A stretch of DNA of 64,000 nt, taken from NCBI GenBank assembly GCA_042569785.1, contig JBHPGW010000005.1:3347-67346 (forward strand), given 5' to 3'. This stretch comes from Planctomycetota bacterium (lineage in GTDB: Bacteria; Planctomycetota; Phycisphaerae; Sedimentisphaerales; Anaerobacaceae). Positions 8,165 through 24,822 of the stretch are shown one piece after another; positions within the stretch are counted from its first letter, which is position 1, and every line of letters begins with the position of its first letter. The position numbers were made by a program, and so were the translations under genes. The notes under the pieces are model-generated. The model was not told where the DNA came from. It searched no databases and saw only the letters and a program-made list of their open reading frames with translations.

Positions 8165-8198
8165 AATCTTCCCTTTTCGCCCATTTACGGGCAACTAA

Positions 8199-8411
8199 TT
8201 AGTGTTTGTTTCTTTTGATAATTTTGAAAACTCCGACAACCCCGAGGCATATTACTGCCAAGGAGGCTAAGCCGAATAGGGGGTCATTTTGATGGTATCG
8301 AAGGTTCTCAACACTTTTTGAAATTAATTCAAACAGTTTTGATTTGATTATCAGTATGACGACCATAACTAACAGAAATAGCGGAACTATATTTTCCCAT
8401 CGGATTCTCAT
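8199..8411 (-). CDS. Small two-helix membrane protein
   Basis: 70 aa with two hydrophobic helices (IVPLFLLVMVVILII and LFGLASLAVICLGVVGVF). ATG start with a strong AAGGAGAG SD about 9 nt upstream. Confidence 0.45.
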   Translation of the reverse strand: MRIRWENIVPLFLLVMVVILIIKSKLFELISKSVENLRYHQNDPLFGLASLAVICLGVVGVFKIIKRNKH

Positions 8412-8844: not shown

Positions 8845-8850
8845 ATTTGT

Positions 8851-10545
8851 TCATTCCTTATGGTCAGCAACTATTTTTATCGCTGATTCAAGTGGTTCAA
8901 TTAATATCGTGCTTCGCCCGCGGCTGCCGGATTCTATTTTGTGTTCCCTGATCAAACCTTTCTCAATAAGGCCGGGACGAGCTCGCTGAACTGTATTAGG
9001 GCTTATGCCAGCGAGTTTGGCGTATTCACTGGAGGGATGCATTGGATGTTCGACTACTGCCAGGATGAATTTGAATTCACTCTGGCTCAAATCACCGTAC
9101 TTTTTACCAAGTGATTCACTCCTTAGTTCAATATTTTCAATCCCGGACCAGTTTGAAAATTCAGTTGCAGGTATAACCTTTAGAGATTCCAGTGGCTTTA
9201 GACTGTCATCGGCATCTTTGTCTGTTACGGGCTGTAGCTGGTCTCGTTTAAGTTCTGGTACCTCGAACAAAAACGGGTATCGCCAATTACCTTCACCAAC
9301 CTGTCCGGCAAAAAGTCCCGGCTTAAGATGGTGTGTACACCAGATAATCTGTTCCTGCGTCAACCCTATAAAACCACCGGCGGCTTTGTAGTCCGGGACA
9401 GAACCACATCGTCCGACTATCTTTGTTGATGTTATGCTTGGTAGGCGAACCGAAAGATTGTCAGGACCCAGGACAGATATACTAAAGCCAATACCTGCGC
9501 CTCTGACAAGGCCAGCCATATCTGTAATGGCGTTACCATGATAGCCGGAGGTTTCTTTTTTCTGGGAAAAAGTCCGTTGACCTTCATCAAAGCTTATCCA
9601 TAAATCCATCCCCTGGTTCGATACACCTCTGGCTATCCGTGAACAAAACTCCGATGCTACAGGGTAATTTTGGAGCAGGTCCTGGACAGTTTCAGGCAAA
9701 CCCGCCAGTTCAAAGACTAAATGCGATTTAGCCAATTTATCAATATCCCAACCTTTATGATAGGCGAGTACTTGCGGTCCAAGTGTTAGCAGCACCGCTT
9801 CGAGATTGTCGATGATAGCCTGGCGTGCTTGGGGATTAGCATGCCTGTTGTAGCGAATAGCCTCAAACAAGTGGAAAAGAGTGGGATACATTTCACCGCC
9901 GTTGAATACACCATGCTTTTTGTAGAGCTTTATGATCGTACTTTTTAGTAAAACAGATGCCCTTGGAGGCAGGTTTAAAACATTGACCAAAAGATCGGCA
10001 GCGACTGAGGCATACTCGTTTGGATCTACACCAAAAGGTACCTGTAGTGGATTTACTTTAAACCGTCTCCCTCTGATTATTATCAGGTCAATGTCTTGTT
10101 TTGCTAAGTGCTTTCTGAGAAATCGAAATTCTCTCTTCCTCAAATCAACCAGCCACATACCGCGGACGTGAGGGGCGATCTGGATTGCATAAAAGATAGT
10201 CAACGTAGTTTTTCCCGAACCAGTATTAGCTATGATTAGCGTGCCCGCATTCAAGTACTGAATGAATGCCTTTATCGGGTTTCCATATTCATCGGCGCCG
10301 ATAATAAAATCGCCTTTACGAAGCTTGGACGGTAGGAAAGGGGAACCACTCCGAGCGATCCTTCTCTGTGCATTAGTAACCCTTTTTACAATTTGGCTGA
10401 TAATGAATTTGTCCTGTATCCCATGGCCAAAGCATCTAAGAAGCTGCCTACCGGCAAAATCCTCAAATACACCAAGTTGCTTACCTATTTCTATCTTTTT
10501 TTCTAACTCAGTTAAGGCGTCATCATTTTTCATTTGTTTTTCCAT
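8851..10545 (-). CDS. HerA/FtsK-superfamily P-loop ATPase with C-terminal winged-helix DNA-binding domain
   Basis: The track ORF (to 10887) has a 114-aa N-terminal extension that overlaps the Cys-rich gene in another frame. The ATG at 10545 (MEKQMKNDD) gives a 23-nt overlap. Motifs: Walker A IIANTGSGKTT; VNPL; Walker B-like LWISFDEGQ; C-terminal wHTH SEYAKLAGISPNTVQRARPGLIEKGLIRE. Confidence 0.7.
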   Translation of the reverse strand: MEKQMKNDDALTELEKKIEIGKQLGVFEDFAGRQLLRCFGHGIQDKFIISQIVKRVTNAQRRIARSGSPFLPSKLRKGDFIIGADEYGNPIKAFIQYLNAGTLIIANTGSGKTTLTIFYAIQIAPHVRGMWLVDLRKREFRFLRKHLAKQDIDLIIIRGRRFKVNPLQVPFGVDPNEYASVAADLLVNVLNLPPRASVLLKSTIIKLYKKHGVFNGGEMYPTLFHLFEAIRYNRHANPQARQAIIDNLEAVLLTLGPQVLAYHKGWDIDKLAKSHLVFELAGLPETVQDLLQNYPVASEFCSRIARGVSNQGMDLWISFDEGQRTFSQKKETSGYHGNAITDMAGLVRGAGIGFSISVLGPDNLSVRLPSITSTKIVGRCGSVPDYKAAGGFIGLTQEQIIWCTHHLKPGLFAGQVGEGNWRYPFLFEVPELKRDQLQPVTDKDADDSLKPLESLKVIPATEFSNWSGIENIELRSESLGKKYGDLSQSEFKFILAVVEHPMHPSSEYAKLAGISPNTVQRARPGLIEKGLIREHKIESGSRGRSTILIEPLESAIKIVADHKE

Positions 10546-11794: not shown

Positions 11795-14287
11795 ATGAAT
11801 GAAAAGTGGCCAAAATTTAAGATATATGCTGTCATAGATGGAAACAGTTCAGGGCTGTTTGCAAAAAGACAAATGTCTAAACATGCTCACTGGGAAGAAG
11901 CTTACTTTTATCTGACAGGAGGATTGGAACCAACTGAGGAGATTAAAAACGCGTGTAAAGGCAATTGGAGTTTATTAGACAGAGGAGATTATAATGAGGA
12001 TCGGCTTTTAAGGGAGTTGGTAGAATATGCAAAAGCTGCCGACAAAGCCAGTGATATGAAAATGAGTTGCGAGGTTACAGAAAAACATCATGCAGAAAAA
12101 GGCTATCAGGAGACCGTGAATCGTTATTTCGAAAACCCGAAAGGGGATGCGGAAAAACTACCTTTTAAAAAGTTCTTTATTGATGCTCCAGTTTTTAAGA
12201 TGAGTGTTCTAAAAAACGTGCGGGGACAGCATGAAAAAGTTCAGGGAATGGCGGAAGAGTTTGGTGTATTATCTCCACACAACATCGTAGTACGAGATAA
12301 TTTCAAGTATTTACGGCCGATAGAAGATGTGCTGAGAATCAAAGGTAATGAAAAATCAAAGTGGTTTCGAAAAACAGGCCCTTTAGCGGTAGATTTTGAT
12401 ACTGACAAGGTGTATTGTCGCAGAGAACTGCTTGATAAGCTTAAGAGTATGATCCTGAGCAACTCGCTTTCAATTCTTGAGGGTGTTGCTGCAGTAGGAA
12501 AAACAGTGCTTATTCGTCAACTTGCCTATGAACTCTTTCAAGAAAATGAGTTGGAAGTATATTATTTTGATTGTGATTTGAATAGAGGATTTGATCAGGC
12601 TGAGCTTACAAATGAAATCAACACACTGTGCGGTGTATTTATACTGGAAAACATTCATCTTGAAATACGTAAGATTCAGCGGTTATTGGAACAAATCAAA
12701 GAAGATTCAAAAAAACATGTTCTTTTTACAACTAGACCTTCATTCAGGGAGTTTCAATATACAAAAGATAATAGTCTAAATAACCTGGACTTTATAAGGC
12801 TAAAACCTTTTTGTCAGGCAGATGAGATTATAGACCATTTCATGTCGGTTCATCCCAGTGGTTTTTTACCTTCGGAAGTCGTGCAATCCATAAAGGATAT
12901 TGCAAAGGGCAGTTTTTGGCTTATGGCATATGCACTTGAAGGCTATATCAAAAAGTGTGATACTGATGAACCGCGAGCCTGGTTGGTTGAAGGGATAAAG
13001 GAAGACATGGAAGATCTTGAAAAGTTAAACCATGGTTTCCCTGAAGTTTTGGTTGCACTTTCTCCTCTTTATCAAATCGAGATATTGACTGAAGAAGGTT
13101 TCTTAACGAACACCCTGGGCTTTGACTTGAACTTGTTGAATGAACTGGTCAGAAGAGGTGAAATAACGAGACAGGTGAATTTGGATCAGTATGTATTATA
13201 TGGGCTGCCACATTCAGCCTTAGCTAAAGTTTACTGGGAACATGGTAAAAAATACCGTCGGCGAAGAAAACTGCAAAAACCCATTGATTTTATTTACGAG
13301 TATGCTGTATCAGGGGTTCCTAACGGACTGGAAGCGATCGTATTTAAGAATGAAGATGTACGGAATCAACTGTACATGCGAGTTAATGCTGCTGGGAAAA
13401 TGACAGAGGTTATAGAAAATGAGCTGTCCATGAAAGCAGTTAACTTTTGGATTAAAGATTGTGGTTCTTGTTCTATCAATAACCAATTATTGGTGATTCT
13501 AACTAATAAAATTTCGACACATGATGACATCCGTAATGCGGGATATTGTTTTCGTGATTTATATAAAGTTAATCCTAAAGCGGGGCAAAAACTATTTGAC
13601 CACATAGACCTCAAAAAATTGGCGAGTAGATTTAGTAAATCTACACATGTCATGGAGACATCTTCTTTTATTGATTGTTTTAATACCTCTGATCATAATA
13701 TGGCTATAGAGTTTTGTAATCTTCTTGATATAAAGAAACTAGCAAACGTACTGCCAGAAGTGAAGGTCTTCGGATGTATTTGTGCACCAATTTCTATACT
13801 ATTTATGGTGAATGATAGCATGGGATGGGAGTTTTGGAATCTCTTGGATTGGAAAAAACTCATATCAAAGTCAAAACAAATGAAGTACATTGCAATGACT
13901 TGCTGGGGTATTGGGATGGTGTTTTCCTATCAGAAATCTGCAGGTGAAAAACTTTGGAAAATGTTGGATGTTCAAGAGCTGGCAGATGTAGTGGTTAAGC
14001 ATAAAAATCCTCTTCGTATACAGAAGTGCTTTTTTTTCCTAAATTCAATAAAAAATCCCAAACCTATGCGAGAGTTTTTGAATTTACTGGATATTAGCAC
14101 GTTGGCGAATAATTTGAAAAAGTCAAAAAACGAAAATGAAAAAAAAGACTGTGTTTCCTATATCTGCAAAGTAGATAGAAATATTGGCGAAAAGCTTAAA
14201 TCACTGTTAAGTGGTAATTATCAGTTGCCCTATATGCTAGAACACAAGAAAAAGGTGGCAGAGAGAAAGAAAGAAAGACCGGATTGA
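11795..14287 (+). CDS. STAND/NACHT-like P-loop NTPase with C-terminal ~40-aa tandem helical repeats
   Basis: 830 aa. P-loop LEGVAAVGKTVLIRQLAYEL and Walker B-like CGVFILENIH. At least 5 tandem repeats occupy nt ~13589-14215: KLFDHIDLKKLASRF / EFCNLLDIKKLANVL / EFWNLLDWKKLISKS / KLWKMLDVQELADVV / EFLNLLDISTLANNL. The N-terminal ~220 aa matches no family I recognise. Confidence 0.6.
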   Translation: MNEKWPKFKIYAVIDGNSSGLFAKRQMSKHAHWEEAYFYLTGGLEPTEEIKNACKGNWSLLDRGDYNEDRLLRELVEYAKAADKASDMKMSCEVTEKHHAEKGYQETVNRYFENPKGDAEKLPFKKFFIDAPVFKMSVLKNVRGQHEKVQGMAEEFGVLSPHNIVVRDNFKYLRPIEDVLRIKGNEKSKWFRKTGPLAVDFDTDKVYCRRELLDKLKSMILSNSLSILEGVAAVGKTVLIRQLAYELFQENELEVYYFDCDLNRGFDQAELTNEINTLCGVFILENIHLEIRKIQRLLEQIKEDSKKHVLFTTRPSFREFQYTKDNSLNNLDFIRLKPFCQADEIIDHFMSVHPSGFLPSEVVQSIKDIAKGSFWLMAYALEGYIKKCDTDEPRAWLVEGIKEDMEDLEKLNHGFPEVLVALSPLYQIEILTEEGFLTNTLGFDLNLLNELVRRGEITRQVNLDQYVLYGLPHSALAKVYWEHGKKYRRRRKLQKPIDFIYEYAVSGVPNGLEAIVFKNEDVRNQLYMRVNAAGKMTEVIENELSMKAVNFWIKDCGSCSINNQLLVILTNKISTHDDIRNAGYCFRDLYKVNPKAGQKLFDHIDLKKLASRFSKSTHVMETSSFIDCFNTSDHNMAIEFCNLLDIKKLANVLPEVKVFGCICAPISILFMVNDSMGWEFWNLLDWKKLISKSKQMKYIAMTCWGIGMVFSYQKSAGEKLWKMLDVQELADVVVKHKNPLRIQKCFFFLNSIKNPKPMREFLNLLDISTLANNLKKSKNENEKKDCVSYICKVDRNIGEKLKSLLSGNYQLPYMLEHKKKVAERKKERPD

Positions 14288-14583: not shown

Positions 14584-15144
14584 ATGTTTCCAAATAAAAC
14601 ATACGAGCTTCGAAAATTGTATTTTGAGCAGAGTAAGTACTCTGCAAAACCAATTAAGCCTGAGTATCCGCTATTATTACAGTGGCCTGAAAAAGGTTAT
14701 TTTAAAAAATTAAAGCCCGATGTTGATCTGCTGCAGAGGGCATTGAAACCTGACAAAAATATCGAGGAAAAAAGTATATCGGAACAAATATTTGGTAATG
14801 AGATAAAACAGCAATCTATTGACCTTCATCATATAGCGAATTTATTTTACGAGCGTTGCAGGCTTCACAAAAACCATATCTCAGAAATCGATAGAAGGCA
14901 TATTGAGGCCCAGGAAAAACTGTTTGGAGTTCAAATTAATAATGCATCAGATAAAGGCAAACGTCTTTCAACTCTGGAAGGCCAGTTGTCACAGCTTGAT
15001 CAACAGAGAAGAGAAGAAGAACTTGCGTTTTGGAAGGATACTGTAGAGCTAAGAGGAACGTTATTTGAAAACTCTGGTGACTACAGAGCCGCTAAGCAAA
15101 GAGAATTTATTTTCTCTGATGTGGAGGCTGGCTATGGCAGATAA
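14584..15144 (+). CDS. Coiled-coil hypothetical protein, partner of the second HerA-like ATPase
   Basis: 186 aa. Heptad-like region LSTLEGQLSQLDQQRREEELAFWKD. GGAG lies upstream of the ATG. Its stop overlaps the next gene's start (ATGGCAGATAA). Confidence 0.45.
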   Translation: MFPNKTYELRKLYFEQSKYSAKPIKPEYPLLLQWPEKGYFKKLKPDVDLLQRALKPDKNIEEKSISEQIFGNEIKQQSIDLHHIANLFYERCRLHKNHISEIDRRHIEAQEKLFGVQINNASDKGKRLSTLEGQLSQLDQQRREEELAFWKDTVELRGTLFENSGDYRAAKQREFIFSDVEAGYGR

Positions 15145-16801
15145 TACCGGTTCTGCAGGCGTGCGGCAGCTCTGTTTAAAATTAAAACCAGTACTTGGCT
15201 CTAAGATTGACAAAATCTATACCGCTTATATGGCTGAGGATGATAAAGGCAGAGACCAGATCGAACATTATTTACAACAATTAACAGCTAAATATCTGCC
15301 CACTAAACTAAGTGAAACCGGCACAGCCCTTATTCCACCATCGGAAGAGCAAGCTACAGGCGAATATCCAATTGGCAAAGTTCAATATGCTGGAAAAGAT
15401 TTTTATGACTTTAGCTTAAGAGAAGATGATTGGATCCAGCACATGGCAATACTTGGAAGGAGCGGAGCAGGTAAGACTAATGTAGGGTTTTTGATTATCG
15501 ATCAACTTAAAAAACATAACAAGCCATTCCTGCTGTTTGACTGGAAGCGTAATTACAGGGATTTGCTTTCTATCCCAGGATTTGAAGATGTGGAAGTTTA
15601 TACTATAGGAAGGAACATTGCACCATTTACGTTTAATCCGTTAATACCGCCAGCAGGTACCAATCCAAAGACATGGCTGAAAAAGCTAAATGAAGTGCTT
15701 GCTCATTCATATTGCCTAGGAAATGGATGTTTATTTTTACTTCAGCAGGCTGTCGATGCTGTGTATGAAAAGGCGGGCGTATATGAGGGCACTGTCGAAA
15801 AGTGGCCAACCTTTAATGATGTCATGCGCGAAGCTAGGAGCATGGACACACGAGGTAGGGAATCTGGCTGGTTGTCTTCAACATTAAGGGCTTTATCAAC
15901 ACTTTGCTTCGGTGATATGGATAAACTGGTAAATTCAAATAACAACAAAAGCATTGACCATATACTTGATAAAAATGTTATCCTCGAACTCGATGCCCTT
16001 ACTCAATCAGATAAAACCTTTTTTATTCAGTCAGCTTTGCTTTATTTGCATCATAAGCGTATGGCAGAAGAAAGAAGAGAAGATTTCAAACATGCAATCA
16101 TAATTGAGGAGGCACATCATATATTGTCAGACGAAAGAAGATCTTTAACCGGGGGGCAAAGTGTTATGGATATTGTCTTCAGAGAAATTCGTGAGTTTGG
16201 CGAAAGTCTGATACTATTGGATCAGCATCCGAGTAAAATATCACTTTACGCTCTCGGAAATACTTATTGTACGATCTGCATGAACTTAAAACACAAGACA
16301 GATATTAATGCCATGGCTCAGTGTATGCTGTTGGATCGAGATAGAGATATTTTAGGTTCGCTCGAAGTTGGCCAGGCTGTAGTGAAACTGCAGGGAAGGA
16401 TCGCGAGACCTTTTCAGATTCAAATGCCGCTGTTTGAAATACAAAAAGGGTCGGTTCGCGATAGTGATGTTAAAAAACATATGCAAGATATTGCTCCACC
16501 TATAGTCGTAGAAGATTTTCGGTTACCTGTCCAGGTATCTGAAAGTATCGCCATAGTGGAAACAAATCCAACTGATAAACTAAAAATTGCTTTTCTCAAA
16601 GATGTTGACGAGTATCCTGACAGTGGCATTGCCAACCGATATAAACGGCTTGACATTTCCGTACGTCAAGGCCAGAAAATTAAGGCACAGGCAGTTGGGG
16701 AAGATTTAATTGAAGAAGCGATCAAAGCTACAAGTTCAGGAAGATTAAACACCCTTAAGCTGACAGTGAAGGCTGAAATCTTGCTGTCTGACTCAAAATA
16801 A
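15134..16801 (+). CDS. HerA/FtsK-superfamily P-loop ATPase with C-terminal HTH-like region (second copy of the architecture)
   Basis: Preferred start is the ATG at 15134 (MADNTGSAG), which overlaps the upstream stop. Motifs: Walker A ILGRSGAGKTN; LLFDWKRNY; FNPL; Walker B AIIIEEAHHIL; LLDQHPS. C-terminal region: SGIANRYKRLDISVRQGQKIKAQAVGEDLIEE. Confidence 0.7.
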   Translation: MADNTGSAGVRQLCLKLKPVLGSKIDKIYTAYMAEDDKGRDQIEHYLQQLTAKYLPTKLSETGTALIPPSEEQATGEYPIGKVQYAGKDFYDFSLREDDWIQHMAILGRSGAGKTNVGFLIIDQLKKHNKPFLLFDWKRNYRDLLSIPGFEDVEVYTIGRNIAPFTFNPLIPPAGTNPKTWLKKLNEVLAHSYCLGNGCLFLLQQAVDAVYEKAGVYEGTVEKWPTFNDVMREARSMDTRGRESGWLSSTLRALSTLCFGDMDKLVNSNNNKSIDHILDKNVILELDALTQSDKTFFIQSALLYLHHKRMAEERREDFKHAIIIEEAHHILSDERRSLTGGQSVMDIVFREIREFGESLILLDQHPSKISLYALGNTYCTICMNLKHKTDINAMAQCMLLDRDRDILGSLEVGQAVVKLQGRIARPFQIQMPLFEIQKGSVRDSDVKKHMQDIAPPIVVEDFRLPVQVSESIAIVETNPTDKLKIAFLKDVDEYPDSGIANRYKRLDISVRQGQKIKAQAVGEDLIEEAIKATSSGRLNTLKLTVKAEILLSDSK

Positions 16802-16987
16802 GCTCATTTTTCAATGGTTTTTTGCTTCCGAAATTACCCTCATAAAATTATTTGCTTTAGGGTCGTATTAACAAGGACTTATGAATTACTTATCATTGTT
16901 TATCGTGGCGAATAGATAGAAGGATAAATAATAAATAAATCAAAAAAGGCGTTCTGTCCTTCAAAATGAAAGCTAAGAGAGAGTAGG

Positions 16988-17186
16988 GTTTATGCGTCAA
17001 GTCTATTGTTATAGGCTATCGCAGTATTCTATTTATTCAGTATATTTCACTGCCAGCTATGTCCAACCTATTCGCTTTCACCGGCTATAAAAAGCAAATG
17101 GCTTTTATAAATGTTTCTTACCACTCTGAGGTGAAAAGGAAATCACTCCTTCAAAAACATGAAGGAATTTGGCTCACGCATAAACT
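16988..17186. repeat. Iteron-like motif copies downstream of the orc1/cdc6-like gene, next to an AT-rich stretch
   Basis: acgcataaact at 17176-17186. An inverted copy, gtttatgcgt, at 16988-16997. An AT-rich run aatagatagaaggataaataataaataaatcaaaaaa at ~16911-16947. The 10-mer tccttcaaaa is repeated at 16957 and 17147. Confidence 0.45.
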
Positions 17187-17197
17187 GCACACTCTCT

Positions 17198-18337
17198 CTA
17201 CCCAAACCTTGTTTGCCAGATAGTGGCGAGAATACTTGGGTCGAAAGTCAATTGGATTCTGTTTGTGTATGTTCTGCTGATCTTGGTGGAAATCAGCAGG
17301 ATCAGGCCGAGGGACTGCAGGTATGATAGATTGGAATAGAAATGGACATAGCTAAAAGGCTCTTCGTTGAATTGGGTACTGATCATTCGATAGGATTGAT
17401 ATATGTCTTTTACGTAACCATCTCGCTGCGAAAGGGCTGCTTTTAGGATGAGCAGGTTCTTGTCGTTTAAGTCCCTAACTACATCGAACATTATATCCCG
17501 CCTGGCTTTTTCAAAATGTTCTTTCAGGGGCACCTTAGGTTCCAGGGCCCAGAGATATAAGGTTTTAATCGCTACCCTGACATCGGAATTTGTGTTGCCG
17601 ACGGTCATAGCGGCGATTGCATTGATAGTTCCGGTAGGATTTGATTTTAAACCCATTCGAGCTCGTTCTGTAAGGATTTTTTGCATTTCAATGGCATCGT
17701 AACTGCTGAAGTGAATTATTTCCGGCTGAAGCGTGCTGTTTATACTTTCATCAAGTGAATTGAGGAATTTGGGGTTATTGCTGAGAAGAATGGTCATATA
17801 ATTGTTTGGTGACCGGCTGACAAGGTAGAGAATATCTTTGTGCCTGTCTTTGTCGCTCATCAGGTCGATTTCATCCAGGATGAAAACGGTTTTGTTTTTG
17901 TTTCCTATTTCGAATCTTTGCCATAATTCATCCAGGCTGACACCTCTTGGCCTAACATCAAGTATATGAGCTATGATTTTGAAACTGGTATTATGCTGCC
18001 TGCAGTTGACGTAGATGAAATTGATATCTGTTTGCTGAGCTAATACGTGCATAAGATATTTAGCAGAGAGGCTTTTGCCGCAGCCCCTGGCACCGAGAAT
18101 TATGACATTGTTGGCGATGCTTGTTTGATTGTAACGCAGCAATGAGTCGATCAGTGGTTTGACTTCCTCACGCATCAAAGGCTTATCGGGTATATAGTTG
18201 AAGTCAAAGATTTTGAAATTCTGTATTCTGTCAGAGTTCTTTTTTAAATCCTGCTGTTTAGTTTTAAGGTATTCAGTGATGTCCATTTTACGCGTAAACT
18301 TTACCCAACGTATAAACTCACGGGGCTTTATAAACAT
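17198..18337 (-). CDS. Orc1/Cdc6-type AAA+ replication-initiator-like protein with C-terminal winged helix
   Basis: Orc1/Cdc6 layout throughout. Motifs: FDFNYIPDKPLMREEVKPLIDSLLRY; Walker A ILGARGCGKS; IYVNCRQHNTSFKI; Walker B VFILDEIDLM; ILYLVSR; LLSNNPKFLNSLDESINSTLQPEIIHFSSYDAIEMQKILTERA; GNTNSDVRVAIKTLY. C-terminal wH: YSNLSYLQSLGLILLISTKISRTYTNRIQL. The true start may be Met18 (ATG at 18286), because the first 17 codons overlie two iteron-like repeats. Confidence 0.8.
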   Translation of the reverse strand: MFIKPREFIRWVKFTRKMDITEYLKTKQQDLKKNSDRIQNFKIFDFNYIPDKPLMREEVKPLIDSLLRYNQTSIANNVIILGARGCGKSLSAKYLMHVLAQQTDINFIYVNCRQHNTSFKIIAHILDVRPRGVSLDELWQRFEIGNKNKTVFILDEIDLMSDKDRHKDILYLVSRSPNNYMTILLSNNPKFLNSLDESINSTLQPEIIHFSSYDAIEMQKILTERARMGLKSNPTGTINAIAAMTVGNTNSDVRVAIKTLYLWALEPKVPLKEHFEKARRDIMFDVVRDLNDKNLLILKAALSQRDGYVKDIYQSYRMISTQFNEEPFSYVHFYSNLSYLQSLGLILLISTKISRTYTNRIQLTFDPSILATIWQTRFG

Positions 18338-18392
18338 TATGGTTTTATTTCGAGAAATGCCTTACGCATAAACTAAAGCGAACGCTTAAACT
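18290..18392. repeat. Four direct 11-bp iteron-like repeats ACG[C/T][A/G/T]TAAACT at the 5' end of the orc1/cdc6-like gene
   Basis: acgcgtaaact 18290-18300; acgtataaact 18308-18318; acgcataaact 18364-18374; acgcttaaact 18382-18392. They form two pairs with an 18-nt pitch, 56 nt apart. The same 11-mer recurs at 17176. Confidence 0.55.
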
Positions 18393-18683
18393 GAAGGGTA
18401 TTTCAATTATTCAAATTTAGGCCCCCTACTGACACAGCATGCAGGTTATTCGGTGTACCGAAAACAAGAACGGTCTATTATAATTATGACTCAAGCGTAT
18501 GTTTTGTGTCGGTAAGTATGTCTATAAATACAGCTACTCCATAGGGGAAGATAACTATTAAGGCATAAATATCAATCTTCACTTTTCCCATATCCATGGG
18601 AATTACCATAATAACACAGAAAGATTCACTCTCTGTCAAACGCAATCAATCGACTAAACGATGTAATTAGTCGTTTGATCCGA

Positions 18684-19292
18684 CTAATTTGTGTTGAGAT
18701 AATTTTCAATTTTCAGGCCTTCACAAAGCTTAAACCGATTCCGATTATCTCTGTCCACAGCTTTGCTGAATAAATTAGCTTTTGAGTTGATCTGCCGCAT
18801 TTGGTTTTTGATGGTATTTGGGGACTTGTTTAAAGCTCTGGCAATATCAGCATACGAAAGAGCCATATCCCGATTCTGGAAAAATACGCTTAAAATATTT
18901 TTTTCTTTGGCTGAGAACGTGTCAATATCAAGGCCCTGATTCAAGGGTTTTTGTGGCAATATAGGTAACTGCTGGGCTGGCAAAGGCATGATTGATCGAT
19001 TAGTCGGTTCGATTTGCTCTTTGATCGGGGTAATTGCTGGTTGAGCGACTAATTGCTCCAGGCTTTTCAGCTGATTGGAATTCTTTTTGATTATGATCGT
19101 ATGTTCTGTAATCTCCTGGTCATGCTTTTGCAGAATTATATTTAAAGTGCCGATTTGAGAGTTAAGGTTCCTGATCTCGGACTTTAGTCTTGTGAGTTTC
19201 TGGGTGGATTCAGGAACTGATCTATTAGATCGCCTTTTTCTGGCCTTGCGTTTTTTCTTCCTTTTGAATATGCCAAATAATCCCATTTTCAA
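18684..19292 (-). CDS. Coiled-coil protein with C-terminal LuxR/GerE-type HTH
   Basis: 202 aa. Basic N-terminus KRKKKRKARKRR, coiled-coil middle, and C-terminus FSAKEKNILSVFFQNRDMALSYADIARALNKSPNTIKNQMRQINSK. Its start overlaps the upstream stop. Confidence 0.5.
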   Translation of the reverse strand: MKMGLFGIFKRKKKRKARKRRSNRSVPESTQKLTRLKSEIRNLNSQIGTLNIILQKHDQEITEHTIIIKKNSNQLKSLEQLVAQPAITPIKEQIEPTNRSIMPLPAQQLPILPQKPLNQGLDIDTFSAKEKNILSVFFQNRDMALSYADIARALNKSPNTIKNQMRQINSKANLFSKAVDRDNRNRFKLCEGLKIENYLNTN

Positions 19293-19609
19293 TAAACTCT
19301 TATAGGCGAACCCAGATAATAGGTTTGAGCTTCAATTAATTCGAGCTGTTTTTTTATTCGCCTATACTGAGAATCGGTAAGCCTGGCATTGCTGTCATCA
19401 AGGGCTTGATGTATCTGCATAGCCAGAGATAGAAAAGATGAATATTTGTCCATTAAATCTTTGCTGGCGGTATTATTGAATCTGATAAAAGAAGATGGCC
19501 CTTGCCTTGCCTCATGGGATTTTAGCTTCTGCCAGGCTAATAAAGCTTTCATATCTTCCAGAATATGCCGGAGAGTTTGCAGCCCGGCTACCAGTTCTGT
19601 CTCTGTCAT
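19289..19609 (-). CDS. Hypothetical helical protein
   Basis: 106 aa. 4-nt overlap with the downstream HTH gene. No family recognised. Confidence 0.3.
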   Translation of the reverse strand: MTETELVAGLQTLRHILEDMKALLAWQKLKSHEARQGPSSFIRFNNTASKDLMDKYSSFLSLAMQIHQALDDSNARLTDSQYRRIKKQLELIEAQTYYLGSPIRVY

Positions 19610-19646
19610 AAAGGATTAAAGCTGGCCTAGTATAAAAACCTTTTGC

Positions 19647-19853
19647 TTACAGGTACATATCGTCATAATCGTTCATGTCTTCCCAGCTCAATTCATCGGG
19701 GTCATGATAACCAGAATCATCTTCATGGTGTTCATGCAAATGGTCCAGTATCCTGTTTGAGACCCTACGGATAGCCATAGTATGCTCACAGATCTCTTCA
19801 AGAAGCTGAGTATGCTTCTCTTGTTCGGTTGGTGTGTTTTTTTTTGCTGTCAT
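19647..19853 (-). CDS. Small highly acidic protein
   Basis: 68 aa. The C-terminal half is rich in D/E/H (HLHEHHEDDSGYHDPDELSWEDMNDYDDMYL). Confidence 0.3.
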   Translation of the reverse strand: MTAKKNTPTEQEKHTQLLEEICEHTMAIRRVSNRILDHLHEHHEDDSGYHDPDELSWEDMNDYDDMYL

Positions 19854-19950
19854 TGTAAAATGGTAACGAGGAAAGAGTTTTTAAGCTTTTCGGTGATTAA
19901 ATATGCGTTTAAATTATGGATGATTCAATAGAGCTGTCGCTAAATGGTTG

Positions 19951-19981
19951 TAAAAACCGCGGCCAGAATATGCGGCCGCGG
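19951..19981 (-). terminator. Intrinsic terminator closing the Ubl-E2-JAB-E1 operon
   Basis: The minus-strand RNA reads CCGCGGCC-GCAUAUUCU-GGCCGCGG-UUUUUA: an 8-bp all-GC stem (19957-19964 / 19974-19981), a 9-nt loop and a U5 tail. It begins 10 nt after the E1 stop. Confidence 0.7.
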
Positions 19982-19991
19982 AAAAAGAAAA

Positions 19992-20651
19992 TCACCCCAC
20001 GTCACTAACATTTAACTCCGAAGCCAGAAGATTTAATTGGATATCTGGATCAATTGGTAATAGGCGTAAGTACTTTGTGAATTGAGCAAGCATGAAGCCG
20101 GCTGCTATGTTGGCACAGTATATGGTTGTTTTGGCAGTACAAGGGCCCGTGTGAGCTTGCTGGGCGGTGAATAGGGTCTGAGGGTAGTGTTGGCGGCTTG
20201 GTTCATCACAGGCGGTTATAACTCGCAAAACTTCTGCTGACATTCTACCATCTACGAAGAAGTTGGCCTTATCTTTCACAGCATCCCATATGTGCTTTCT
20301 AGCGACAATTGAATCCACACAGCAAAATACCGTATTGCCCAGAGGTATTGACCGTTTGAATTTATCCAGCACGATCTCAACTTGCAGCTCGTGATTGATC
20401 TCTCGGCAGAACTCGGCTGTTACGTCAACCTTGGGGCGTTTTAGGTCTTTGTGCATATAACCTTGTGTTGCCAGGTTACTGATATCCACGTGATCAAAGT
20501 CGATAAGTTGTAAAACAGGTATGCCGATTGCGGTTAGTTGGATTGCAACCTGTCTGCCAATGGCTCCTATGCCAATCACTGTAGCCTTGCAATCTAGTAT
20601 TCGCTGTCTTGGTACAATATCAGCTTGTCTTGAGTATCTTTCACTGCTCAT
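19992..20651 (-). CDS. ThiF/MoeB-family E1-like adenylyltransferase (minimal, adenylation domain only)
   Basis: RYSRQ...ATVIGIGAIGRQVAIQL (GxGxxG), LIDFDHVDISNLATQGY, LKRPKVDV. Preferred start is the ATG at 20651 (MSSERYSRQ), which has GAGG 6 nt upstream and an 11-nt overlap with the JAB stop. Confidence 0.8.
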   Translation of the reverse strand: MSSERYSRQADIVPRQRILDCKATVIGIGAIGRQVAIQLTAIGIPVLQLIDFDHVDISNLATQGYMHKDLKRPKVDVTAEFCREINHELQVEIVLDKFKRSIPLGNTVFCCVDSIVARKHIWDAVKDKANFFVDGRMSAEVLRVITACDEPSRQHYPQTLFTAQQAHTGPCTAKTTIYCANIAAGFMLAQFTKYLRLLPIDPDIQLNLLASELNVSDVG

Positions 20652-21393
20652 ATGACACCTCGCTTTCATCCCAGAAATCACTTCTTATTGACAGTTCTTC
20701 CATGAAATACTCTCGTTCCATAGGGTCCATAGAATCGATCTCAGAGAGTAAATCCTGATCTGTTAAGCTACCAAAATCTTCAAAGCCATCACTTCCAAAA
20801 ACATCGGCTTCTTCAGTTTGCTTAATCCTTTTTGATTTGCCGGTGAGGTTGAAGATCGTATCTTCGGTGACATTAGCCATGTATTGTTGCTGCCAAACCT
20901 CGAAGTCAGCGGCATCGAATTCGCAACTGTAATCGACACAGATGGGAATCTTTGCTTCTCCGCCTGGACCTGCGTTGAAACGCAGCCTTGCGAATGTGCT
21001 TCCTTCCTGGGCGACGATAGCCATGATAGACCAGTCGCATGAGCCGAACACTCGCTGGAATGTTGATTCGTCGGTACAACTTGGCTGTGGTGAATCGCCG
21101 GGATGTGTGTGGAGCCAAATGCGGGCGAATTGTTCAGGTTGCCGTCCTGCTTCTACCTGGTCTTCGAAAAAGTCCGCAACCGCTTCATCATCAAATGAGA
21201 CTGAGACGGCTGTTACTTTTTGTTTTACCAGGACAAAATCCGTTACAAGTAACAGATCATCAGCTTCGGTGATTCCAAAACCGCCAACTTCGTTATCGGT
21301 TATGTCACGCAGGAATACGAGTTTGGCCCAGGCTGTCGGGCTGAACCGCAGGCTTGGTTTCTGATGTTGTTGTGTCTTCTTCAAGTTCTTCAT
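20641..21393 (-). CDS. JAB/MPN (JAMM) metallopeptidase with acidic C-terminal tail
   Basis: The track ORF (to 21819) has a 142-aa N-terminal extension that is an alternate frame of the E2 Cys-rich tail. The ATG at 21393 gives MKNLKKTQQ. JAMM elements are DNEVGGFGI (Glu) and WLHTHPGDSPQPSCTDESTF (HxH-x7-S-xx-D). Confidence 0.8.
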   Translation of the reverse strand: MKNLKKTQQHQKPSLRFSPTAWAKLVFLRDITDNEVGGFGITEADDLLLVTDFVLVKQKVTAVSVSFDDEAVADFFEDQVEAGRQPEQFARIWLHTHPGDSPQPSCTDESTFQRVFGSCDWSIMAIVAQEGSTFARLRFNAGPGGEAKIPICVDYSCEFDAADFEVWQQQYMANVTEDTIFNLTGKSKRIKQTEEADVFGSDGFEDFGSLTDQDLLSEIDSMDPMEREYFMEELSIRSDFWDESEVSYEQ

Positions 21394-22360
21394 TTTCTTG
21401 TTCCTCTCTCTGCTCTTGGCAGCTATTACATAAACCATCTTCATTAATACAATCTTTACAGAGCGTTTCTTCGCATTCTGTACATACCGCTGTACAGCTA
21501 TTGCAAACAGGTTGATTGCAAGCTGGGCATTCATAGCTGCAACCCAGGCAAATCGTTGTGTCGCAAATCTGGCAATAGGTACTGCAACTGGAGCAGTAAT
21601 CACGCTCGCAATCTTCACAATAGTAGCAATCATCGCCTGCAACCGTGTATCCACAGTCATAGCAGGAAATACCTTCCCAGTCATCCAGTGATACATAAGG
21701 GCTGTCTGGATTGTAGGTTTGCAGAATCTGAACGATGATCGTAAAAAAATCGTTAAGCCTGCCTTGTTGAATTGCCTTGCGGATCGCAATGTAGCCATCG
21801 CCTTCACATAGCTTTTCATGGCTGACGTGTGGATGAGTTACATCGCAATCGCTGCCTGCCGGGTTTGGCTCAAGGGCTATGATCTTGTATGGGCTTTCAG
21901 TTGTGAGCTTTTTTATCTCGTTTAGAAATAGTCGAATTTCAAATGCTCCAAGCGTAATATCATCGAGCACTATTGATTCTGTTATTACCGAGATGGACTT
22001 TGCTTTGAGATCAAATTTTAGTTCGCCGAATTCCTGTTCAATCTGCAACAGTTCTGCAACCACATCGCCTAACTTGGGCAGTTTTATCTCGTCAGTATTG
22101 ATGGTACTCTTGAACTGCTCAAGGTGGTGTGAAAAGTCGTTGAGATTTCTACTGATCCTTGATCGTATCTTTTCAGCAGCTGGATACCAACACCTGTCAA
22201 TGGCTCTTTGGAAGATGGGAGAGTTTTTGGTTACGTCAGAGCACTTGCAGCTGAAGTCTTCAAGCCGATGTTGTATCTTTAGTAGCCTTTCATGTTTAAG
22301 ACTGTTTAGAGCCTGCAAGAGCAGGTTTGCCGCTCTTATATGTTTTTTGTACTTTTTCAT
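21305..22360 (-). CDS. E2 (UBC)-like protein with N-terminal helical extension and C-terminal 21-Cys CxxC-repeat domain
   Basis: A beta-meander-like stretch ITLGAFEIRLFL is followed by THPHVSHEKLCEGDG (HPH-x6-Cys, as in prokaryotic E2s). Residues 233-314 (nt 21419-21664) hold 21 Cys in 10-11 CxxC pairs. Confidence 0.6.
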   Translation of the reverse strand: MKKYKKHIRAANLLLQALNSLKHERLLKIQHRLEDFSCKCSDVTKNSPIFQRAIDRCWYPAAEKIRSRISRNLNDFSHHLEQFKSTINTDEIKLPKLGDVVAELLQIEQEFGELKFDLKAKSISVITESIVLDDITLGAFEIRLFLNEIKKLTTESPYKIIALEPNPAGSDCDVTHPHVSHEKLCEGDGYIAIRKAIQQGRLNDFFTIIVQILQTYNPDSPYVSLDDWEGISCYDCGYTVAGDDCYYCEDCERDYCSSCSTYCQICDTTICLGCSYECPACNQPVCNSCTAVCTECEETLCKDCINEDGLCNSCQEQREEQENEELEEDTTTSETKPAVQPDSLGQTRIPA

Positions 22361-22444
22361 AGATACTCCTTAATGAAAAAAAGGCCTCTGCCTATAATTG
22401 AAAATAAGCAGAAGCCTTATGGTTAATGTTTACGAGCAAACAGC

Positions 22445-22669
22445 TCAGTAAGCCGCTCCATCTATCTTGGTTGGCGTTACTGTTACCCTGTCGTTTTCCT
22501 TTAGCACATAGTCCTTCGGGACTGGCTGGCGATTTACACGGATCAAATAATCTGCCGCTTCATCGTGAGGCATCTTTTGCTTGAAAAGCTTTTCGATACT
22601 TGTGCCCTCTTCGACGTTAATAAAATCTGCAAATCCGCCACCATTGTTATTTATGTACATTATTTTCAT
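22445..22669 (-). CDS. ThiS/MoaD-like beta-grasp ubiquitin-like protein
   Basis: 74 aa. LIRVNRQPVPKDYVLKENDRVTVTPTKIDGAAY parallels the ThiS C-terminal half (INQQIVPREQW...DGDQILLFQVIAGG). It is the first gene of the E2-JAB-E1 operon. Confidence 0.6.
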   Translation of the reverse strand: MKIMYINNNGGGFADFINVEEGTSIEKLFKQKMPHDEAADYLIRVNRQPVPKDYVLKENDRVTVTPTKIDGAAY

Positions 22670-22819
22670 GTTTTTTCCTTTCGGTAAAGTGTTAATATTT
22701 TGAAATTTACTTGTGACTACAATCTACTGATTCTTTTATCAAGGTGGACTGCGCGCAGCGGTACCACTATAATTTTGCATGGGTTTTCCTTTCTGAATTG
22801 AATATTGAAGTGTGTTTAG

Positions 22820-23128
22820 TTAATCTTTAAACATTTCCGGTACTATCTCTTGGAGCATTTTCGGGCTCCAATATAAGTCACGCTCAATGGGCAGTCCCAT
22901 CATTCCTCTTACACTTTGGAGTTCTCTCAGGCTGAAATAGCCCAGTTCTTTTTCATGACCTTCTACCAGGCCAAAGAATGTATCATCGCCATCGAATTCT
23001 GTAGCGTACCATGTCCAGTTGGCGTCTGGGGTGAAGAATTTTACATGTGCGATTGCTTTGCCACCTTTGTCTTCCTGAGAATATAATGGCGGCAGTTTTG
23101 TTTTGACTTCTTTGGTTACAAGTTTCAT
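22820..23128 (-). CDS. DUF2958-family protein
   Basis: KLPPLYSQEDKG...VKFFTPDANWTWYATEFDGDDTFFGLVEGHEKELGYFSLRELQSVRG..LPIERDLYWSP matches the conserved DUF2958 signature I recall from plasmid/ICE proteins. Confidence 0.75.
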   Translation of the reverse strand: MKLVTKEVKTKLPPLYSQEDKGGKAIAHVKFFTPDANWTWYATEFDGDDTFFGLVEGHEKELGYFSLRELQSVRGMMGLPIERDLYWSPKMLQEIVPEMFKD

Positions 23129-23205
23129 GATTGTTACCTACCTTTCGTTAAATGTGATGGAAAAATACCATCGTGGGTTAAATAAAAAAACAATTAGAAA
23201 TGGTT

Positions 23206-23481
23206 TCAGCCGTAAATATCACTCACTGATGAGCTTTCTGGTTGACTTGGGTCCTTACGCTCGGTCAGGTGTTCAAATGCCTTCTGAAGAGCTAATATGG
23301 CTTTAGGGATGTCGTTTATACTCAGGCTGTTGGTGCCCTGCCATTGACCTGTCTTATCTTTGTACCTGACTTCAATTACAACTTTTGGCAATTGAATCGA
23401 CTGACCGTTCTTTTGTATGGTGTTTCTAAATACAGCTGCTCTTACAGCACCTATCTTGAAAACAGTTTCTGGTTTTGACAT
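23206..23481 (-). CDS. Small hypothetical protein; possibly PC4/YdbC-like ssDNA-binding fold (tentative)
   Basis: 91 aa. IGAVRAAVFRNTIQKNGQSIQLPKVVIEVRYKDKTGQWQGTNSLSINDIPKAILALQKA. AGGAGGAA SD upstream. The fold guess rests on the pattern only. Confidence 0.3.
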   Translation of the reverse strand: MSKPETVFKIGAVRAAVFRNTIQKNGQSIQLPKVVIEVRYKDKTGQWQGTNSLSINDIPKAILALQKAFEHLTERKDPSQPESSSVSDIYG

Positions 23482-23502
23482 TTTCCGCTTATTCCTCCTA
23501 TC

Positions 23503-23532
23503 GATTGGTAAATACCAATCAGTACGATCGTA
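23503..23532. promoter_or_regulatory. Two adjacent perfect palindromes upstream of the 23481 gene start (candidate operators)
   Basis: gattggta-aa-taccaatc at 23503-23520 and tacgatcgta at 23523-23532. They sit immediately 5' of the SD of the minus-strand gene 23206..23481. Confidence 0.3.
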
Positions 23533-24096
23533 AAGTCGATAGACTTAATAAGCATTTTGCTTGTGCAGTATATATAAGGCCGAGAGGAGGCGTTTTAAAA
23601 ACGCGCCTGTAGTAAGCGTGTATTCAAACAACGTCGAAATCGAGGCCGAGTATTATAATCTGCATAAAGCAAAAAAACCGTTGCTGTCAGCTAGGTTTAT
23701 ATCTGCTGGAACATAACGGCAGAAGAATATAGTGGTAGAATACGATATGAGTTGATCGCCAGTAATGGCGGAAGTGATAAAGCGATAGCTAAGAAAGATA
23801 TATTTGTGTTTTGGGGTATTTCGGGTGAAATACCTGTTCTCCAGCCCGGAAAAGGCTAAATTAAAGATCTTCGGAAATTCAGGTTTTTCAAAGCTATTGT
23901 GTTTCCTGGATAAGCTTTTGTGGTTGTGCAAGCTTTTTGTCAGGATGTATTAGTTTTGATGTTTTGAATTTTACTAATCTTCAAGTTCTATAAGTTTCGT
24001 AAGTTTATAAAGCTTTCTATCGGTTCGAAGGTCTCACTTTTCATGCTTCAATCGACAGGTTTAAAAAGTCTGCTGATTTCACATTAGGGCACGAAT

Positions 24097-24822
24097 GTGA
24101 AGAAAATGAGGCAAAACAACAACTTCTCCCGTATAAGAAAGTCGCCAAAAAAGGTAAAATCTTCAAATGTGAAATTATTGAAAAAATACCACAATTTCGG
24201 CGAGACTATACGGTATCTAACAATAAATGAATTAAAACAACTCTTCGATTGTATTGACAATTATCACCATAAGCTGATGTTCCAGGTTGTCTATGAACTC
24301 GGCTGTAGAGTTGGCGAATTCGTAAGGATTCAGATCAAACATTTGAACTTTTCAAGAAGTACTGTTTTCTTCCCTGCTGAAAATACCAAAACCAAATATC
24401 CACGGACCAGCTATTTGCCAAAGGGTCTGATGAATGAGATCAAAAGCATTTTAAAACAAAAACAGATAATCAGTAAAAGAGAGGAAAATATTAGAAAGTC
24501 AGGAGCTTATCTGTTTCATCCTGGTCAAAGATGGAATCAGAGATATACAGAAAATCGTATCCGACAGATATTTCAGCATTACGCAAAGATAGCGAAATTA
24601 CAGACAGTATATGGAAAAGATACATGCGGGAGAAATCTGAAGATGTTTACCGTTCACTCCCTCAGGCATAGCCATGTAATGCATTATACCATTGATTACA
24701 AATTACCATTGCCGATTGTTCAAAAACAAGTTGGGCACAGAAGCCTGAAAACAACTTCGATTTATTTGAAACCATCAACTGAAAAAATTGCAGAAGCATA
24801 TGAAAAAGCAGTATTAGAATAG
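24097..24822 (+). CDS. Short tyrosine recombinase (phage integrase family, Xer-like catalytic domain)
   Basis: 241 aa with a GTG start. ELGCRVGEFVRIQIKHL (box I Arg), HSLRHSHV (HxxR) and VQKQVGHRSLKTTSIYLK (His and the catalytic Tyr). Confidence 0.8.
   Translation: MKKMRQNNNFSRIRKSPKKVKSSNVKLLKKYHNFGETIRYLTINELKQLFDCIDNYHHKLMFQVVYELGCRVGEFVRIQIKHLNFSRSTVFFPAENTKTKYPRTSYLPKGLMNEIKSILKQKQIISKREENIRKSGAYLFHPGQRWNQRYTENRIRQIFQHYAKIAKLQTVYGKDTCGRNLKMFTVHSLRHSHVMHYTIDYKLPLPIVQKQVGHRSLKTTSIYLKPSTEKIAEAYEKAVLE

Follow-up and report, generated by a model that had tools for sequence, protein, structure and literature searches.

The window analysed here is a stretch of 64,000 nucleotides (nt) from contig JBHPGW010000005.1 of a Planctomycetota bacterium, and all coordinates refer to this whole window. 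Its minus strand carries, between positions 19950 and 22669, a cassette of four genes encoding a ubiquitin-like protein (Ubl), an E2-like protein, a JAMM/JAB metallopeptidase and a minimal ThiF-type E1. The comparison with related loci described below showed that this cassette represents a strongly conserved, previously unannotated Ubl-E2-JAB-E1 operon family. The genes and features of the cassette, in the direction of transcription, are as follows.

22445-22669, minus strand: Ubl gene, an open reading frame (ORF) of 74 amino acids (aa) with a ThiS-like beta-grasp; AAGGA lies 7 nt before its ATG
22374-22418, minus strand: stem-loop and U-tract between the Ubl and E2-like genes, formed by a 15-pair hairpin (22381-22418) followed by TTTTTCAT
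21305-22360, minus strand: E2-like gene, an ORF of 351 aa with a helical hairpin, a UBC-like core, a 20-Cys zinc array and an acidic disordered tail
22091-22360, minus strand: N-terminal antiparallel helical hairpin of the E2-like protein (aa 1-90), with helices 2-55 and 59-87 in the AlphaFold model
21665-22072, minus strand: predicted UBC-like core of the E2-like protein (aa 97-232), according to invariant columns, Foldseek and the hhalign motif alignment
21806-21838, minus strand: putative active-site motif THPHVSHEKLC of the E2-like protein (aa 175-185), according to sequence and conservation
21419-21664, minus strand: Cys array of the E2-like protein (aa 233-314), with ten conserved CxxC pairs and Cys residues invariant across homologues
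20641-21393, minus strand: JAMM/JAB metallopeptidase gene, an ORF of 250 aa
19992-20651, minus strand: minimal ThiF-type E1 gene, 219 aa counted from the ATG
19950-19981, minus strand: intrinsic terminator closing the operon (hairpin and T-run)

An earlier note, made from the sequence alone, had described the four ORFs, and all of them were found in place on the minus strand with the lengths and motifs attributed to them. A Shine-Dalgarno-like motif precedes each of the four starts. The genes were said to be four consecutive overlapping ones, which is correct for the E2-like and JAB genes (an overlap of 89 nt at 21305-21393, out of frame, between the 3' end of the former and the 5' end of the latter) and for the JAB and E1 genes (11 nt), but not for the Ubl and E2-like genes, which are separated by a spacer of 84 nt. 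The strong intrinsic terminator proposed for the end of the operon is also present: a stem of 9 base pairs, eight of them G-C, was located at 19957-19981 and is followed by TTTTT.

The E2-like protein of the window is identical to NCBI ACFL3G_01965. It has 509 relatives among 5.8 billion proteins, all of them unannotated and none with a Pfam domain on record, and among 1.84 billion representatives a profile of the E2 core detected 1820 clusters at 50% identity. With each species represented by one genome, a scan yielded 71 loci, nearly all from Planctomycetota (Phycisphaerae, Sedimentisphaerales, Anaerohalosphaeraceae, Pirellulales, Planctomycetaceae, Gimesia and Fuerstiella); the exceptions are a few Victivallales and a few contigs that were probably mis-binned. 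Many genomes carry two or three loci, and the genome from which the window comes encodes three paralogues at 64-66% identity. ORF calling combined with profile searches in 75 related loci detected the Ubl in 64-65, the JAB in 68-70 and the E1 in 63-64 of them, and the order Ubl-E2-JAB-E1 on one strand was found in about 64 of the 75, a recurrence that speaks against a chance arrangement. The atypical domain architecture to which the earlier note had drawn attention is real and conserved throughout the family. No description of this planctomycete cassette family was found in the literature searched.

The four proteins are not conserved to the same degree. The median identity to the window proteins, calculated over 51 loci, is 67% for the E1, 64% for the Ubl, 57% for the JAB and 44% for the E2-like protein. 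The last is the fastest-evolving protein of the cassette, and its variability is concentrated in the N-terminal hairpin, the most variable region of the protein (column entropy of 3.1 bits, compared with 1.9 bits in the core). This pattern fits a conserved catalytic chassis combined with a diversifying recognition arm.

The assignment of the E1 to the adenylation family is firm on sequence grounds. The protein contains GIGAIG and DFDHVDISNLATQ, and Pfam ThiF covers aa 25-200 as a single domain (E-value, E, of 2.5e-22; 79.6 bits against a cut-off of 28.1), in agreement with the ThiF-type E1 that had been predicted. The scores of the NCBIfam ThiF/MoeB models are all far under their cut-offs (64.5 bits against 275). 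Among relatives of solved structure, the active adenylation domains of UBA7 and UBA3 match best, with ThiF and BubCD next (E 9e-7 for BubCD). The conserved elements are GxGAIG, RQ, a DxD motif and DGRM. A GTG start at 20681 is less likely than the ATG, because the homologues have 217-218 aa and GAGGTG is found 4 nt before the ATG. The protein had been described as minimal, with about 220 aa, an adenylation domain only and no inserted Cys domain, and this is what we observed: an inactive or second adenylation domain, a Cys domain, a ubiquitin-fold domain and CxxC zinc motifs are all absent from its sequence. We can now add that Cys171 (in GPCTAK), 37 residues after the Asp of DGRM, is invariant. 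This residue appears to sit at the crossover-loop position, where ThiF and MoeB have their Cys.

The Ubl was confirmed to be a single small beta-grasp protein with residues past its last Gly. Pfam ThiS was matched by 24 of 25 family members (best E 3.4e-5), and the other Pfam families matched by the members are mostly of the beta-grasp type as well (TGS, Ub-Mut7C). The window protein ends with TKIDGAAY, so that its tail after GA is AY. In nearly all members of the family, an invariant TPTKI(E/D)GA precedes a tail of 0-9 variable residues, and two homologues stop exactly at GA; K68, G71 and A72 are invariant. Type II BilA has a conserved Gly and a short tail, and BilC cuts after that Gly (PMC10557695). 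By analogy, the Ubl of the cassette would be a precursor trimmed by the JAB, most likely at Gly71. In the spacer downstream of the Ubl gene, the ribosome-binding site of the E2-like gene (AAGGAG) lies 3' of the hairpin and U-tract. Across 42 aligned loci both the sequence and the fold of the hairpin are kept, and each of the 11 consensus pairs shows compensatory changes. It probably acts as an internal intrinsic terminator or attenuator, which would keep the level of Ubl mRNA above that of the enzyme mRNA.

The identity of the JAMM/JAB peptidase is firm at the motif level. The signature read from the sequence (E..G and HTHP-x7-S-xx-D) corresponds to the full set of JAMM residues, E35, H95-x-H97, S105 and D108, each present in at least 97% of the 65 JAB homologues compared. 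The profile matches are weak: Pfam Prok-JAB gave E 4.3e-4 and 20.6 bits, under the cut-off of 25, NCBIfam Cap3 gave E 5.6e-4 and 20.2 bits against a cut-off of 200, and the best PADLOC JAB model gave E 3e-5. The JAB domain begins at about aa 14 and the additional region is C-terminal. Residues 166-250 form the acidic tail, which had been estimated at about 90 aa; it is 85 aa long, poorly conserved and contains 22 Asp and Glu versus 6 Lys and Arg. The 89-nt overlap of the JAB start with the E2-like gene, also claimed in the earlier note, is real. The JAB ATG lies inside the E2-like gene, with an upstream GGA/AGG motif, in the window and likewise in the related loci L001 and L003. The peptide encoded in the JAB frame of the overlap includes LRFSPTAWAKL, in which L15, F17, P19, A21, W22, K24 and L25 are kept in at least 97% of the 65 homologues. 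Of the two frames in the overlap, that of the JAB is under stronger constraint; the tail of the E2-like protein is disordered and variable there.

The E2-like protein of the window matched nothing relevant in Pfam, NCBIfam, PADLOC and PHROGs. When 99 family members were compared with Pfam, neither UQ_con nor Prok-E2 was matched at E up to 1, and sequence searches of the PDB with the single sequence and with the family profile gave zinc fingers and coiled coils only. In the alignment of 99 diverse homologues (about 31-76% identity to the window protein), the invariant residues of the core are H176, P177, H178, C185, G187, Y216 (in TYNPDSPY) and W228. No invariant His was found downstream of C185; the conserved His residues, H176 and H178, are both upstream. 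C185 is proposed to be the catalytic Cys of the protein.

The first AlphaFold run, which used 35 close homologues, gave a predicted local distance difference test score (pLDDT) of 64.7. This model was poor at the active site and its Foldseek matches were uninformative, and the modelling was therefore repeated with the 99 diverse homologues obtained from a representative search. The final model reached a pLDDT of 92.8 and a predicted template modelling score (pTM) of 0.79. Its core consists of a helix (97-111), a beta-meander (114-145), a strand (158-162), a loop with the HPH (176-178) and Cys185, and two further helices (187-198 and 202-214), followed by the beta-rich Cys array (233-314), another helix and the disordered acidic tail. 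The UBC topology of this model supports the view that the protein with THPHVSHEKLC, as first proposed from the sequence alone, is E2-like. Among the Foldseek matches listed for the PDB, the only recurrent compact-domain matches were eukaryotic E2s (UbcA1, UBE2H, Toxoplasma and Leishmania E2s, UbcH5c, UBE2K and UFC1); they extended over 131-140 columns, with target-normalised template modelling scores of 0.41-0.47 and probabilities up to 0.85, at E of only 0.08-1. A local hhalign comparison with five canonical E2s was not significant (P 0.14); at the motif level it paired HPH with HPN, C185 with the catalytic Cys and TYNPDSPY with PNPDDPL. The UBC fold is thus moderately supported by the modelling and not proven. 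In a distant family member, P0177 (783 aa), the E2-like core is preceded by GYF and trypsin-like peptidase domains, an arrangement that may be either a true fusion or a gene-calling merge.

According to the earlier note, the E2 core was flanked by a helical N-terminal extension of about 130 aa and by a Cys-rich tail of 82 aa. The former is too long: the first core helix begins at aa 97, which leaves about 95 aa. The latter is right, and the stretch of aa 233-314 in the window protein comprises 82 aa with 21 Cys. Its ten CxxC pairs would provide enough Cys for approximately five Cys4 zinc sites. The profile of the array is weakly similar to B-box, RING, FYVE and ZZ fingers; the matches obtained were the MID1 B-box (the best, E 2.5e-3), the zinc domain of the TFIIH p44 subunit, FYVE and TRIM21. 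Pfam Siva was matched by 11 and B-box by 4 of the 99 family members, and the BFVD matches of the array were Siva-like and LIM-like viral proteins. The helical hairpin is proposed to be a target-recognition or oligomerisation module.

The cassette is surrounded by genes of a mobile element. The neighbouring features of the window are listed here.

14584-24822, both strands: mobile-element module around the cassette, according to Pfam, NCBIfam and PADLOC matches
24097-24822, plus strand: tyrosine integrase
23206-23481: p91, a 91-aa protein
22820-23128, minus strand: DUF2958 gene, upstream of the Ubl gene (Pfam DUF2958, E 5.2e-16)
19647-19853: p68
19289-19609: p106
18684-19292: helix-turn-helix (HTH) protein
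17198-18337, minus strand: Orc1/Cdc6-like AAA+ protein (TIGR02928, E 3.9e-42)
15065-16801, plus strand: HerA-like ATPase, of the HerA/FtsK-like type (DUF87; weak TraG P-loop and PADLOC HerA matches)
14584-15144, plus strand: p186, a 186-aa protein whose gene overlaps that of the HerA-like ATPase
11795-14287, plus strand: STAND-type NTPase of 830 aa (weak nSTAND5 and nSTAND3 matches)

The DUF2958 gene is the commonest neighbour of the cassette and was found upstream of it in 41-43 loci; the window copy encodes 102 aa versus about 288 aa in most of the others. Largely the same gene set occurs again in seven related loci (L011, L032, L048, L051, L054, L068 and L043). The Orc1/Cdc6-like protein is probably the replication initiator of the element; its gene comes after a conserved trio of genes for small and HTH proteins (18684-19853). 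The STAND NTPase lies beside the element, is not conserved in the related loci and is possibly a defence gene. Many loci encode further proteins upstream of the cassette: one of 544 aa in 29 loci, a DUF2958 protein of about 288 aa in 41 and, in 36, two or three paralogues with a length of about 126 aa. These extra conserved genes lie between the integrase and the Ubl, at 4869-9524 in locus L003 and at equivalent positions in about 30-40 loci. PHROGs searches with the 544-aa protein, the paralogues of about 126 aa and a 219-aa neighbour were uninformative, the PDB search, made for the 544-aa protein only, returned nothing, and no Pfam domain beyond DUF2958 is on record for this group. These proteins could be partners or substrates in the Ubl system.

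The cassette is present in none of the 72,556 plasmids and 50,697 phage records searched. It was found on two IMG/VR contigs, and the one examined carries large serine recombinases, an ATPase and a primase-like protein alongside. A prophage was considered and rejected, because no plasmid or phage record matched and the neighbours of the examined IMG/VR copy are recombinases and a primase, not virion genes. A search for repeats around the integrase revealed no convincing flanking direct repeats that would mark attachment sites. We conclude that the cassette is a stable module of several integrative elements.

Bacterial Ubl operons (CBASS Cap2/3, Bil and Bub; CBASS stands for cyclic oligonucleotide-based anti-phage signalling system) were proven to be real ubiquitination-like pathways only recently. 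The profile check showed that no Pfam, NCBIfam or PADLOC model puts the cassette in Bil, PRTRC, Bub or CBASS; the profile searches that the earlier note had named as a possible refutation thus did not refute it. The best matches to defence models are weak (PADLOC E1-E2, E 2.2e-9; PADLOC JAB, E 3e-5; NCBIfam Cap3, E 5.6e-4). As had been pointed out, the gene order is the same as in BilABCD, the ISG15-like anti-phage operons of Types I and II (Chambers et al.; PMC10557695), and it is kept in about 64 loci. Further points in common are the lack of a separate E3, the conserved Gly and short non-conserved tail of the Ubl, and the proposed choice of targets by the E2. However, the Bil E1 (BilD) is composed of an inactive adenylation domain, an active adenylation domain and a mobile Cys domain, whereas the cassette E1 has 219 aa and one adenylation domain. 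BilB has a catalytic Cys with a downstream His (C138 and H151 in E. aridi), in contrast to the upstream HPH, the fused hairpin and the 20-Cys array of the cassette E2. Bil is found mostly in defence islands of Rhizobiaceae and the cassette in mobile elements of Planctomycetota. Of the PADLOC Bil models, only BilD was matched, and not above noise (E 2.7e-4, 17.8 bits); there was no match to BilA, BilB and BilC.

PRTRC cassettes are carried on plasmids and integrative conjugative elements, and the set includes ParB and the PRTRC A-F proteins; to our knowledge, its function is not established. Clusters of Ubl, E2, JAB and E1 genes on conjugative elements were noted already by Iyer et al. (2006; PMC1779556). 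Their operon class 6d (PRTRC; NCBIfam TIGR03736) is found on mobile elements and comprises Ubl, JAB, E1, E2 and an alpha-helical protein; the class 6d E2 has no HPN-type His and its His comes after the Cys, and an alpha+beta domain forms the N-terminal part of the class 6d JAB (PMC1779556). The likeness of our cassette to PRTRC, suggested from the sequence, applies to the mobile-element setting and to the presence of a Ubl, an E2-like protein, a JAB and a small ThiF-like protein, each encoded separately. It does not extend to the PRTRC models or to the E2 and JAB signatures: in the cassette the HPH precedes C185, and the extra region of the JAB is C-terminal. When 10 proteins were scanned with the NCBIfam PRTRC models, the only match was to PRTRC_ThiF, with 22.9 bits for a cut-off of 144.75.

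The Bub system (6E/DUF6527; PMC11601596) shares with the cassette a single-domain E1 of the homodimer type without a Cys domain and, as far as predicted for the cassette, processing of the Ubl by a JAB and a divergent UBC E2. It differs in forming Ser/Tyr oxyesters without a catalytic Cys, in its Ubl-E2 and JAB-E1 fusions and in the BubE protease, whereas the cassette has separate genes and invariant Cys171 and Cys185. DUF6527 was not among the library matches of the window proteins scanned. Type II CBASS also combines an E1 adenylation domain, a UBC-like E2 and a JAB acting together; unlike the cassette, however, its Cap2 is an E2-E1 fusion that conjugates the CD-NTase, and it has no Ubl. No CD-NTase or effector was found among the window proteins scanned. 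In the eukaryote-like Ub/E1/E2/small-RING/Rpn11 operons, the components are recognised by the canonical profiles (ubiquitin, UQ_con and RING), and a small protein of its own serves as the E3. These operons of Caldiarchaeum and of some bacteria (PMC3082918, PMC5654768) are similar to the cassette, in the reading proposed here, in the full cascade, the JAMM-type processing of the modifier, the HPN-type motif before the Cys and the zinc domain. They differ from it in that the cassette E2 is not detected by profiles, its modifier is ThiS-like and its array of ten CxxC pairs is fused to the E2, in contrast to a C3HC4 RING.

Taken together, the region is likely to encode a self-contained Ubl protein-conjugation pathway on an integrative mobile element of Planctomycetota, with a mechanism that can be outlined from homology. 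The JAMM peptidase would trim the precursor ending with KI(E/D)GA and a tail, baring a reactive C-terminus, most likely Gly71. The minimal E1, probably a homodimer like ThiF, MoeB, UBA5 and BubCD, would adenylate this C-terminus, and the Ubl may then be moved onto Cys171 of the E1, as in non-canonical E1s without a separate Cys domain. It would next be handed over to Cys185 of the E2, beside the HPH standing in for the canonical HPN. The E2 would be its own specificity factor, its hypervariable hairpin and/or B-box/RING-like array choosing the target, with no separate E3 encoded, and the JAB could undo the modification. The attenuator hairpin would hold the Ubl mRNA in excess of the enzyme mRNA. 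The role of the pathway probably lies in the conflict of the element with phages, other elements or the host, in which the tagging of a specific protein would serve defence or establishment; this is the least certain part of the proposal. We also put forward, tentatively, a wider view: a Planctomycetota-wide ubiquitination family in which the E2 would be an E2-E3 hybrid (coiled-coil arm, HPx...Cys core and zinc module), the E1 would be the smallest known Cys-dependent E1 and proteins of the host or of rival elements would be tagged.

Several points weigh against a conjugation pathway of this kind. Each step of the cascade is deduced from homology. The E2 assignment is without significant profile support (no Pfam match in the 99 members, Foldseek E 0.08-1, hhalign P 0.14). 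The zinc-finger matches are weak, the best having E 2.5e-3, and the E3-like role is therefore speculative. Ala72, the residue after Gly71, is invariant as well, so that the mature C-terminus of the Ubl could be Gly-Ala and not Gly. The conserved neighbour genes have no recognisable function, and the roles in defence and in element maintenance are inseparable on these data.

Those two roles lead to two more specific explanations. The cassette might be anti-phage defence cargo of the Bil type, with the same chemistry, in which a phage structural protein is tagged and both host and element are protected. The BilABCD gene order and the tail of the Ubl, which would be processed like that of Type II Bil (PMC10557695), speak for this, as does the fact that all characterised bacterial Ubl/E2/E1 operons (CBASS Cap2/3, Bil, Bub) are tied to phage defence or stress (PMC11601596). 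The hypervariable recognition region of the E2, the several divergent paralogous cassettes per genome and the STAND NTPase and HerA-like ATPase close by would also suit such a function. We nevertheless consider it rather unlikely: the PADLOC Bil models are unmatched save for BilD, the E1 lacks the architecture of inactive and active adenylation domains with a Cys domain, the HPH upstream of the Cys differs from the downstream His of BilB, and no regulators of the CapH/CapP type were recognised among the window proteins scanned. Moreover, the cassette keeps a fixed position by DUF2958 and conserved element genes, and does not occupy a variable cargo slot. This constant synteny (upstream DUF2958, p91, the 544-aa protein and two or three paralogues of about 126 aa; downstream p68, p106, HTH and the Orc1/Cdc6-like protein) is what would be expected of a module for maintenance or establishment of the element, in a setting like that of PRTRC (class 6d), which would modify a replication, partition or restriction factor of the host or element. 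Tyrosine or serine integrases and replication proteins accompany the cassette across different element backbones, and Ubl/E2/JAB/E1 clusters were previously noted on conjugative elements (Iyer et al. 2006; PMC1779556). This explanation is similarly doubtful, however, since the NCBIfam PRTRC models are not matched above their cut-offs, the class 6d signatures of E2 and JAB (PMC1779556) do not apply, no ParB is present and no match was found in the 72,556 sequenced plasmids. PRTRC is itself a system to which, as far as we know, no function has been assigned.

Two other explanations question the chemistry. The E2-like protein might be a scaffold, a nucleic-acid-binding zinc protein or a Cys/His hydrolase, with the Ubl, JAB and E1 acting without an E2. 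Archaeal SAMP/UbaA conjugation runs without an E2, E1-only conjugation is likewise known for TtuB in Thermus, and neither profiles nor structural comparison gave a significant E-value to E2s. This is nonetheless improbable in view of the UBC-like order of secondary-structure elements in the model with pLDDT 92.8, the E2s as the only recurrent compact-domain matches among those listed by Foldseek, and the alignment of the invariant HPH-x6-C and the NPxxP-like motif with the canonical E2 active site; moreover, in practically every locus the gene is flanked by those for the Ubl and the JAB. We regard as very improbable a sulfur-carrier or biosynthetic pathway, in which the ThiS-like protein is thiocarboxylated, the JAB frees the product adduct and the "E2" is an unrelated zinc protein. 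A similar arrangement exists in CysO/MoeZ/Mec+ in cysteine synthesis and in the JAB-E1 genes of thioquinolobactin synthesis. ThiS is the best profile of the Ubl, ThiF and MoeB are the best named models of the E1, which has a single adenylation domain as they do, and JAB occurs with ThiS and ThiF in sulfur-transfer operons (Iyer et al. 2006; PMC1779556). However, neither the window nor the annotated relatives showed a recognisable biosynthetic partner such as rhodanese, CysM, ThiG or MoaE, the Ubl ends with Gly-Ala and a tail and not with a free Gly-Gly, and an E2-like protein with an invariant Cys is invariably part of the cassette. The mobile context and the multiple divergent copies per genome are ill-suited to a housekeeping pathway, and the NCBIfam ThiF/MoeB scores (64.5 bits against 275) are far under the cut-offs.

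If the cassette is a conjugation pathway, as we prefer to read it, it would add a large unannotated family, nearly all from Planctomycetota and borne by mobile elements. Its design is unusual, with a predicted Cys-dependent E1 of about 219 aa and an E2 fused to a zinc-finger array and a fast-evolving helical arm. The modifier is more conserved than the E2 and the JAB and about equal to the E1. Such a cassette could offer a compact, possibly re-targetable tagging system and serve as a test case for building E3-like specificity into an E2. It could also give the first functional handle on otherwise uncharacterised integrative elements of planctomycetes.

Some further features of the element and its surroundings were observed. 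The pair of genes for the HerA-like ATPase and p186 is inverted with respect to the cassette in the window and has the same direction as the cassette in L011, L032 and L048. The element is bordered by polysaccharide and glycan biosynthesis genes (PMT_2, Bac_transf and glycosyltransferases), which occupy 24995-64000, mostly on the minus strand. A similar flank of glycan genes was found in L003 and L004, which suggests a preferred insertion neighbourhood. Finally, a motif of 21 nt, TGTCTATAAATACAGCTACTC, is located at 18519-18539, upstream of the Orc1/Cdc6-like gene, and a copy with 86% identity lies at 23421-23441, within the 5' end of the gene for the 91-aa protein. This repetition could be due to chance, or the motif could be a candidate binding site for a regulator or a replication protein.

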